DNA of 1,055 bases from Naegleria gruberi (Eukaryota): the NCBI GenBank assembly GCA_000004985.1, contig GG739590.1; one strand, 5' to 3'. How positions within the stretch are numbered: position 1 is the stretch's first letter; each line of letters starts with the position of its first letter. Positions 215 through 1,055 of this stretch are shown here, one piece after another. A program made the position numbers and the translations under genes. The notes beneath the pieces are model-generated. The model made no database searches, had not been told where the DNA came from, and saw nothing but the letters and a program-made list of their open reading frames with translations.

Positions 215-406
215 ATGCCAAATGCTTTCCAATTTTTGAATGTTGTCAAAACATGGGAATCTCCAACAAGAGCTGCAACTAGATCACCTCCTTTTGTTGG
301 CCGATACGAATCATTATTTCAAACGATTGAAACAATTTACAAACCTCTCCCTGAAGATAAACTTCAAATAGGACTCATTTCAAATACTATGGGAATGGGA
401 AAATAG
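215..406 (+). CDS. Segment A of the frame-2 coding locus: ATG-initiated 63-codon ORF ending at in-frame TAG (404-406); hypothetical protein, product not recognised
   Basis: Track ORF, checked by hand. ATG 215-217 is the first ATG in frame 2 in the window. The translation is MPNAFQFLNVVKTWESPTRAATRSPPFVGRYESLFQTIETIYKPLPEDKLQIGLISNTMGMGK, which reads as protein-like. It shares its frame with the two downstream segments. Frames 1 and 3 over the same span contain early stops (TAG 280, TGA 328, TGA 237). Confidence 0.45.
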   Translation: MPNAFQFLNVVKTWESPTRAATRSPPFVGRYESLFQTIETIYKPLPEDKLQIGLISNTMGMGK

Positions 407-443
407 ACCTTCCTCTACCAATGCATTAATAGATTTCTTGATA

Positions 444-488
444 GTAAGTTGTTATTGTTTCAGATTAGGAGTTTAACTCCTTATTAAG
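444..488 (+). other. Candidate 45-nt intron (GTAAGT donor 444-449, AG acceptor 487-488) that would remove the in-frame TAA 485-487 and keep frame 2
   Basis: This is the second of only two GTAAGT hexamers in the window. The length of 45 is 3n. The splice joins a443 to a489-t490 as an AAT codon and continues DNLLYEF in frame. The AAG acceptor is weak. This cannot account for the TAG at 404, because no GT dinucleotide occurs between 297 and 404. Confidence 0.15.
467..481. repeat. 15-nt perfect palindrome AGGAGTT-T-AACTCCT (7-bp arms, 1-nt centre)
   Basis: Read directly: the reverse complement of AGGAGTT is AACTCCT. The arms do not extend further (t466 and t482 are not complementary). Confidence 0.9.
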
Positions 489-496
489 ATGACAAC

Positions 497-703
497 TTGC
501 TGTATGAATTCATTTTCAATGAAGATCCATTTGGGGCCAGTAAAAAACATATACAAGATAGCTTCAACAAGATTACATGTCCAGAATCTTACTCCAGAGC
601 TGACTTTGTCAATAAGTTGAACAAATCCTTCAAAATTAGACATTTTATTCCTTTCGAATGTTCAGCAAGCAATCTTCCAATCCGCGATTGTAAGTCTCAA
701 TGA
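497..703 (+). CDS. Segment B of the same frame-2 locus: open from 488 (just after TAA 485-487) to TGA 701-703; hypothetical protein
   Basis: Track ORF (its listed start is TTG 497; there is no ATG in this frame within the segment). It is in the same frame as segment A. The 26 codons between them (407-484, TFLYQCINRFLDSKLLLFQIRSLTPY) also contain no stop. Translation: MLYEFIFNEDPFGASKKHIQDSFNKITCPESYSRADFVNKLNKSFKIRHFIPFECSASNLPIRDCKSQ. Confidence 0.45.
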   Translation: MLYEFIFNEDPFGASKKHIQDSFNKITCPESYSRADFVNKLNKSFKIRHFIPFECSASNLPIRDCKSQ

Positions 704-749
704 AAAGATTTCTTTCATCTTTTTAAGTATTTCATGAAATGATTAAAAG
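690..749 (+). other. Candidate 60-nt spliceosomal intron (GTAAGT donor 690-695, AG acceptor 748-749) that would remove both in-frame TGAs and keep frame 2
   Basis: GTAAGT begins at 690. An AG at 748-749 gives a length of exactly 60 nt (3n). The splice joins t689 to a750-c751 as a TAC codon, giving ...PIRD-Y-IFGHSL... in frame. Weaknesses: the acceptor context is AAAAG|A, with no pyrimidine tract and not the usual YAG, and there is no clear branch point. The removed segment also reads as sensible codons (KDFFHLFKYFMK). Confidence 0.25.
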
Positions 750-1055
750 ACATATTTGGGCACAGTTTGACACCTACCAAAGCACATAAAACTGTCGAAG
801 AGTTGGTGGGTGAGAAGGGATTGAATGGCCCTGAATTGGTCCAATTAAATGCTCCAAAAGTCAAAGATATCTTTACAGTCCCAAAAGAGTATCAACAGAA
901 TTTATTGCCTCTGATTTTATTGATTGATTCATTTCATGCCATCAACACAAACACTTGCCCCAATGGTTCTCTTTATGAAGTTGGAATTCTCCTATTCGAA
1001 AGCATGAAATATGTACTGAAATCCAGTGCCACTTTGTCTCTTGTTTTATCTGCCA
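743..1055 (+). CDS. Segment C of the same frame-2 locus: 104 sense codons with no stop, truncated by the 3' window edge; hypothetical protein
   Basis: Hand translation of frame 2 from 743 gives LKDIFGHSLTPTKAHKTVEELVGEKGLNGPELVQLNAPKVKDIFTVPKEYQQNLLPLILLIDSFHAINTNTCPNGSLYEVGILLFESMKYVLKSSATLSLVLSA with no stop before position 1055. It is probably absent from the track because it has no stop. There is no start codon at its 5' end (the first in-frame ATG at 734 is followed two codons later by TGA 740; the next is at 1004), which argues that it continues segment B. All three minus frames have multiple stops across this span. GC rises to about 47% around 781-840. Confidence 0.55.

Follow-up and report, generated by a model that had tools for sequence, protein, structure and literature searches.

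A 60-nt GT-AG Element Enclosing Both In-Frame TGA Codons of a Putative Ciliate-Type Gene Is Very Probably a Short Intron

The 60-nt element at positions 690–749 of the window (the whole stretch of DNA analyzed, 1,055 nt, GC about 34%) is very probably an ordinary short phase-1 GT-AG intron in a ciliate-type gene read with NCBI translation table 6. An earlier note on this DNA had claimed that a 60-nt GTAAGT...AG element (690–749) removes both TGA codons, at 701 and 740, in frame, and this proved correct in every detail. The note had left two readings of these nucleotides open, a canonical-donor intron whose length is a multiple of three (3n) and read-through with TGA as tryptophan. We favor the intron and disfavor read-through because the TGAs are clustered, the GT-AG ends are exact, GC falls to a trough and codon periodicity is lost, all of which can be seen directly in the DNA, as can the in-frame excision, and because the length suits an intron of a code-6 ciliate. 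Coordinates of the features discussed are collected in table 1.

Table 1. Features of the window and their coordinates
Feature	Position	Strand	Description
Upstream coding sequence	215..689	+	Frame +2; opens at the first in-frame ATG and ends on t689, the first base of a split codon
Possible second intron	444..488	+	GTAAGT...ATTAAG; 45 nt (3n), phase 1; GC 0.289; TAA485 inside, no TGA
Candidate phase-1 spliceosomal intron	690..749	+	GTAAGTCTCAATGAAAAGATTTCTTTCATCTTTTTAAGTATTTCATGAAATGATTAAAAG; 60 nt (3n), GTAAGT...AAAAG
5′ splice donor GTAAGT of the candidate intron	690..695	+	Fits the extended donor consensus (GTAAGT / GTRAGT); the hexamer has just one other copy in the window, at 444, also +
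First in-frame TGA	701..703	+	Retention of the intron would give a stop at ...IRDCKSQ*
Pyrimidine-rich tract TTTCTTTCATCTTTTT followed by AAG	709..727	+	Best pyrimidine tract; possible competing 3′ splice site (38-nt intron)
Second in-frame TGA	740..742	+	Frame +2
3′ end of the candidate intron, TTAAAAG	743..749	+	Acceptor AG 748–749, the only AG that clears both TGAs and restores frame +2
Downstream coding sequence	750..1055	+	Frame +2, no stop; GC 0.382, positive periodicity; the gene runs past the window end

Reading Frame and Genetic Code

Frame +2 is the evident coding frame, with the fewest standard stop codons: 8, where frames +1 and +3 have 27 and 16 and the frames of the minus strand 18–24. 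The eight are TAA41, TAG77, TAA107, TAA161, TAG404, TAA485, TGA701, and TGA740, and when table 6 (TAA and TAG as glutamine, TGA the only stop) is applied only TGA701 and TGA740 remain. Both lie among the 20 codons of 690–749, and the remaining 331 codons of frame +2 are free of TGA. The triplet as such is not scarce in the window, since frames +1 and +3 contain 12 and 9 of them, respectively. With TAA, TAG, and TGA all counted as stops, frame +2 contains open stretches that are 80, 71, and at least 104 codons long, and downstream of 743 there is no stop of any kind up to the window end. A run of 104 stop-free codons has a chance of ∼4e-4 in random sequence (arithmetic from base composition), so the downstream exon must be read in frame +2. 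Codon periodicity, scored by a position-specific log-likelihood ratio, is above 0 across most of 182–391 and 482–691; it is weak as evidence, the score having been trained on the putative exons of the same window, a small training set.

TAG404 must be sense, and TAA485 must be either sense or intronic. There is no GT within 301–420, so TAG404 is not removable by a nearby intron. Only these two in-frame TAA or TAG codons fall where the sequence is confidently coding, and one of the pair may be intronic; the code-6 case implied by the earlier note is thus thinner than it seemed, its support being these two codons. We considered and rejected a standard code combined with three introns: TAG404 could then be removed only through a poor GTTGGC donor at 296, well-periodic sequence would be cut out, and three consecutive 3n introns would be needed. 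A Euplotes-type reading (TGA as cysteine, with a +1 frameshift at AAA-TAG404) was likewise rejected, the open frame after 404 being +2 and not +3. Selenocysteine at the TGAs seems unlikely.

The first 214 nt are probably a noncoding leader. Of the six TAA/TAG codons in frame, four fall here; C strongly exceeds G (skew down to −0.56), and periodicity in frame +2 is negative. Within this stretch a frame +3 ORF opens at ATG30, whose surroundings are A-rich (AAAAAAAATG), and extends under table 6 to TGA237, overlapping ATG215; no canonical donor/acceptor pair links this ORF to frame +2 through one intron.

The 60-nt Element

Excision of 690–749 joins t689 to ac750–751 and yields the in-frame sequence ...SNLPIRDYIFGHSLTPTK... 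(...SNLPIRD-Y-IFGHSLTPTK...), after which frame +2 contains no TGA to the window end. The earlier note had given the product of removal as ...IRDYIFGH..., with which our spliced translation agrees, and its read-through peptide was also reproduced, the unspliced frame with TGA as tryptophan translating as ...CKSQWKDFFHLFKYFMKWLKDIFGH.... The two outcomes differ in their expected tryptic peptides, DYIFGHSLTPTK from splicing and DFFHLFK or WLK from read-through.

The element is distinct in composition from its flanking exons, being AT-rich and having lost codon periodicity. Its GC is 0.233, compared with 0.348 for 489–689 and 0.382 for 750–1055. When 60-nt windows were slid across 215–1055 (n = 782), GC was 0.233 or less in 17, all of which start between 686 and 703; a second GC trough is formed by windows starting at 425–428, which cover GTAAGT444. 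The periodicity log-likelihood ratio is −2.4 for 690–749 and −2.94 for 444–488, and mostly between +0.1 and +3.1 for the exon windows. These properties bear on the earlier description of the read-through patch as very protein-like, which we do not share: a peptide rich in phenylalanine, lysine, and tryptophan is expected from DNA that is 77% A+T (40% T, 37% A), and in the same stretch GC is at its lowest and the periodicity score falls below zero.

The arrangement exceeds chance expectation. We randomized the order of all 351 frame +2 codons 20,000 times and counted the shuffles with a 3n element of 100 nt or less that starts with a given donor, ends in AG, and clears every in-frame TGA. Such an element arose 10 times with GTAAGT as the donor, 34 times with GTAAG, 421 times with GTA, and 1,560 times with a bare GT (each out of 20,000). 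The hexamer GTAAGT occurs twice on the plus strand (444 and 690) and not at all on the minus strand, against an expectation of 0.30, and at least two copies were present in 9 of 200 shuffles.

Around the element, GT occurs at 690, 694, 727, and 765, and AG ends fall at 694, 707, 727, 749, and 765. Acceptor AG707 would define an 18-nt intron and leave TGA740 in place, AG727 (38 nt) shifts the reading to frame +1 with a stop at TGA 811–813, and AG765 (76 nt) also shifts the frame. Given that the downstream exon is in frame +2 and that the other AGs fail, 690–749 is the only canonical solution. The TTAA of the 3′ end, 3–6 nt before the acceptor AG, may hold the branch-point A; the main pyrimidine tract (709–724) precedes the internal AAG727 instead of the proposed acceptor, which counts against the intron. 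Joining 689 to 728 gives, in frame +1, ...FHEMIKRHIWAQFDTYQSTQNCRRVGG* with its end at TGA 811–813, and this 38-nt splice is possible as an unproductive isoform.

The 3′ half of the candidate intron also contains an imperfect palindrome (721–748, + strand) with 16-nt arms around a central CATG (TTTTAAGTATTTCATG / CATGAAATGATTAAAA, 88% complementary). Folding of the RNA of 680–760 was no better than that of shuffles (z = 0.87) and Rfam returned chance-level matches only; a reading of the element as RNA structure was rejected. A 15-nt direct repeat (ATTAATAGATTTCTT / ATGAAAAGATTTCTT, 87% identity) has one plus-strand copy at 425–439, just upstream of GTAAGT444, and the other at 700–714, within the element; in DNA this AT-rich, such a match is probably due to chance.

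A Second Candidate Intron

The status of 444–488 as a second intron is uncertain: no TGA interrupts it when it is read through, so that the frame is open spliced or unspliced. Its ATTAAG end resembles the TTAAAAG end of 690–749, and the two candidates share the same codon phase and a 3n length; this parallel, on the same strand and in the second GC trough, counts in favor of the intron at 690–749. Shorter options from the same donor, 20 nt to CAG463 or 25 nt to TAG468, shift the frame.

The Encoded Protein

The protein of 215–1055 (+) is an orphan in the databases searched. There were no matches in Pfam and just two in PDB, both nonsignificant and at chance level (E about 0.7). A word-indexed search of 5.8 billion proteins with the read-through and the spliced protein as queries gave no match at E up to 10, and a HMMER search with the C-terminal 104 residues (743–1054) against 1.84 billion mostly prokaryotic representatives found nothing. 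Scans of metagenomes, prokaryotic genomes (185,579 bacterial and archaeal), and viral contigs gave no relatives confirmed by tblastn, exact look-ups of two ORF fragments returned no contig, and blastn against phages produced no match.

One resemblance, to P-loop NTPases, is a lead and not a finding. The plus-strand sequence at 299–442, FVGR...(about 25 aa)...LQIGLISNTMGMGK-(TAG404)-TFLYQCINRF, looks like the start of a STAND/AAA-type P-loop, with TAG404 at the Ser/Thr position of Walker A, and a Walker-B-like LILLIDSF is found at 908–935 (+), about 170 codons past the P-loop-like motif. Below the Pfam threshold, the sequence with glutamine at TAG404 scores E = 0.26 to AAA_22; with an artificial threonine at the TAG and 444–488 removed, nSTAND_NTPase5 scores E = 0.008 and AAA_22 E = 0.016.

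Comparison with Known Introns

The element resembles the short 3n introns of ciliates in being a GT-AG element of 3n length, AT-richer than its exons, with in-frame TGA (two here) and apparently sense TAA/TAG in the surrounding frame. Short 3n ciliate introns carrying in-frame stop codons were reportedly described by Jaillon et al. in 2008. Exitrons, which are 3n introns within coding exons of plants and animals that can be retained as coding sequence and lack stop codons, are similar in being internal 3n elements readable as intron or as peptide, but the two stops of the element in the presumed host code mean that retention would truncate the protein.

The exon GC of 35–38% looks higher than would be expected for Tetrahymena. 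Intron lengths have modes of 25 (Paramecium), 56 (Tetrahymena), and 48 nt (Ichthyophthirius), and fall into classes of 33–36, 47–51, and 78–80 nt in Oxytricha and Stylonychia (Bondarenko and Gelfand 2016, PMC5014332). Introns that are short and of 3n length are depleted, and those present, in Paramecium, Tetrahymena, Oxytricha, and Stylonychia, are enriched in in-frame stops, which these authors read as a guard against intron retention via nonsense-mediated decay; in Tetrahymena this enrichment of stops in 3n introns is highest at 50–70 nt (PMC5014332), a range that includes the 60 nt found here. Spirotrich introns are similar in their GTAAG(T) donor, the consensus being GTAAG...TATAG in Oxytricha and Stylonychia (PMC5014332), with a bias for AAG after GT and for T(A/T)T before AG in Halteria (PMC7858049). 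A length near the 47–51-nt class is plausible, and the GC of about 34% would fit the macronuclear DNA of a spirotrich. The 3′ ends here, AAAAG and ATTAAG, differ from the TATAG and T(A/T)TAG of these three genera, and the mismatch of AAAAG counts against the intron. No telomere or other nanochromosome feature is present in the window.

Alternative Explanations

Decoding of TGA as tryptophan, whether under ciliate code 27/28 or in a bacterial or organellar gene under code 4, is on the whole improbable. Its nuclear form, in which 690–749 would be coding in a genome where all three stops are potentially sense and the GTAAGT...AG ends are coincidental, is very unlikely, and this small chance covers a code 27/28-like gene with both TGAs as tryptophan from a lineage absent from the protein databases. 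The candidate codes are those of Condylostoma (table 28), the karyorelicts (table 27), Blastocrithidia (table 31), and Amoebophrya, and a variant would make the element dual-use, sometimes spliced and sometimes read through. The frame does remain open under such a code, and sense TAA/TAG together with in-frame TGA in one ORF recalls Condylostoma and the karyorelicts, whose coding sequences contain UAA, UAG, and UGA at frequencies of 0.08–2.9%, UGA being the rarest. The 2 TGA and 6 TAA/TAG among 351 codons here (0.57% and 1.7%) fit this range, a point against the intron, and since the range covers these counts the codon frequencies do not separate the hypotheses. The coding GC of Loxodes, 33.5% (PMC11441545), is also close to that of the window. 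What argues for the intron is the placement of the TGAs. In organisms using tables 27 and 28 they are spread through genes at conserved aromatic residues; here they are confined to an excisable 60 nt, and the dispersed in-frame TGAs characteristic of the tryptophan codes (tables 4, 27, 28, and 31) are missing from all 331 outer codons. Their chance fall into one 20-codon block framed by GTAAGT and an in-frame AG was matched in only the 10 of 20,000 shuffles reported above, and this block is also the one with the lowest GC and lost periodicity. It would be 10% tryptophan, versus two tryptophans in the other 331 codons. Moreover, introns in nuclear TGA-as-tryptophan ciliates, at 15–25 nt, are far shorter than the candidate, with a mean of 19.3 nt in Loxodes (93% at 25 nt or less) and about 95% at 15 nt in heterotrichs (PMC11441545).

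The two-way choice of the earlier note had omitted a code 4 genome, that is, Mollicutes, another bacterium or phage with TGA as tryptophan, or a mitochondrion. TAG404 and TAA485 would then be true stops separating two ORFs that share a frame by chance, at 215–406 and from about 497 onward through the last base; the second would have two tryptophan TGAs. We regard this as very improbable. Frame +2 does have only six stops under table 4, the 407–496 interval is spacer-like in its low GC and negative periodicity, and a GC of about 34% suits such genomes. The second ORF, however, has no in-frame ATG before 734, only TTG497, and the GAGGA at 209–213 ends one base before ATG215, too near for a ribosome-binding site. 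Promoter-like sites (7 vs 4.1 ± 2.1 in shuffles) and terminator-like sites (1 vs 0.5 ± 0.7) are not significant, and no relative was found among the 1.84 billion mostly prokaryotic representatives, the 185,579 bacterial and archaeal genomes, or the phage records. The GT-AG ends and the GC trough would again be left to coincidence, and the weak P-loop-like motif appears to span TAG404. There is a similarly slight chance that the TGAs are defects in a pseudogene in decay, where TGG changed twice to TGA, or that they belong to a germline-only internal eliminated sequence (IES) of a ciliate, removed from the DNA and not from the RNA. Each TGG-to-TGA change is a single G-to-A substitution of the kind favored in an AT-rich genome, but the rest of the frame is intact over the three long runs described above. 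TA-bounded in-frame deletions that clear both TGAs exist, the tightest being 691–775 (84 nt); AT-rich DNA commonly offers such pairs by chance, and no TA- or pointer-bounded deletion matches the GC trough. The ends of Paramecium IESs follow a TAYAG consensus, which none of the TA-bounded deletions matches, the 691 end reading TAAGT, and excision between the AAAAGA copies at 703 and 745 would not remove TGA701.

Function and Significance of the Candidate Intron

Under the favored reading, a U2-type (GT-AG) spliceosomal intron in phase 1 would interrupt a frame +2 gene on the plus strand of a host, most likely a ciliate, that decodes TAA and TAG as sense and TGA as stop. Splicing of T689 to A750 is predicted to give ...NLPIRD-Y-IFGHSLTPTK.... 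With its 3n length a retained intron would leave the frame unshifted, and the two TGAs would stop translation of the unspliced mRNA early, at ...IRDCKSQ*, possibly making it removable by nonsense-mediated decay. The pattern would correspond to the "splicing spell-check" described for short 3n ciliate introns.

In-frame TGAs are a known feature of short 3n ciliate introns and no evidence that TGA encodes tryptophan. If the intron is real, it would be a further example of a known rule, by which short 3n ciliate introns with TGA catch unspliced messages. The finding matters mainly for annotation: TGAs clustered in a GT-AG element are not to be taken for a code in which TGA is sense.
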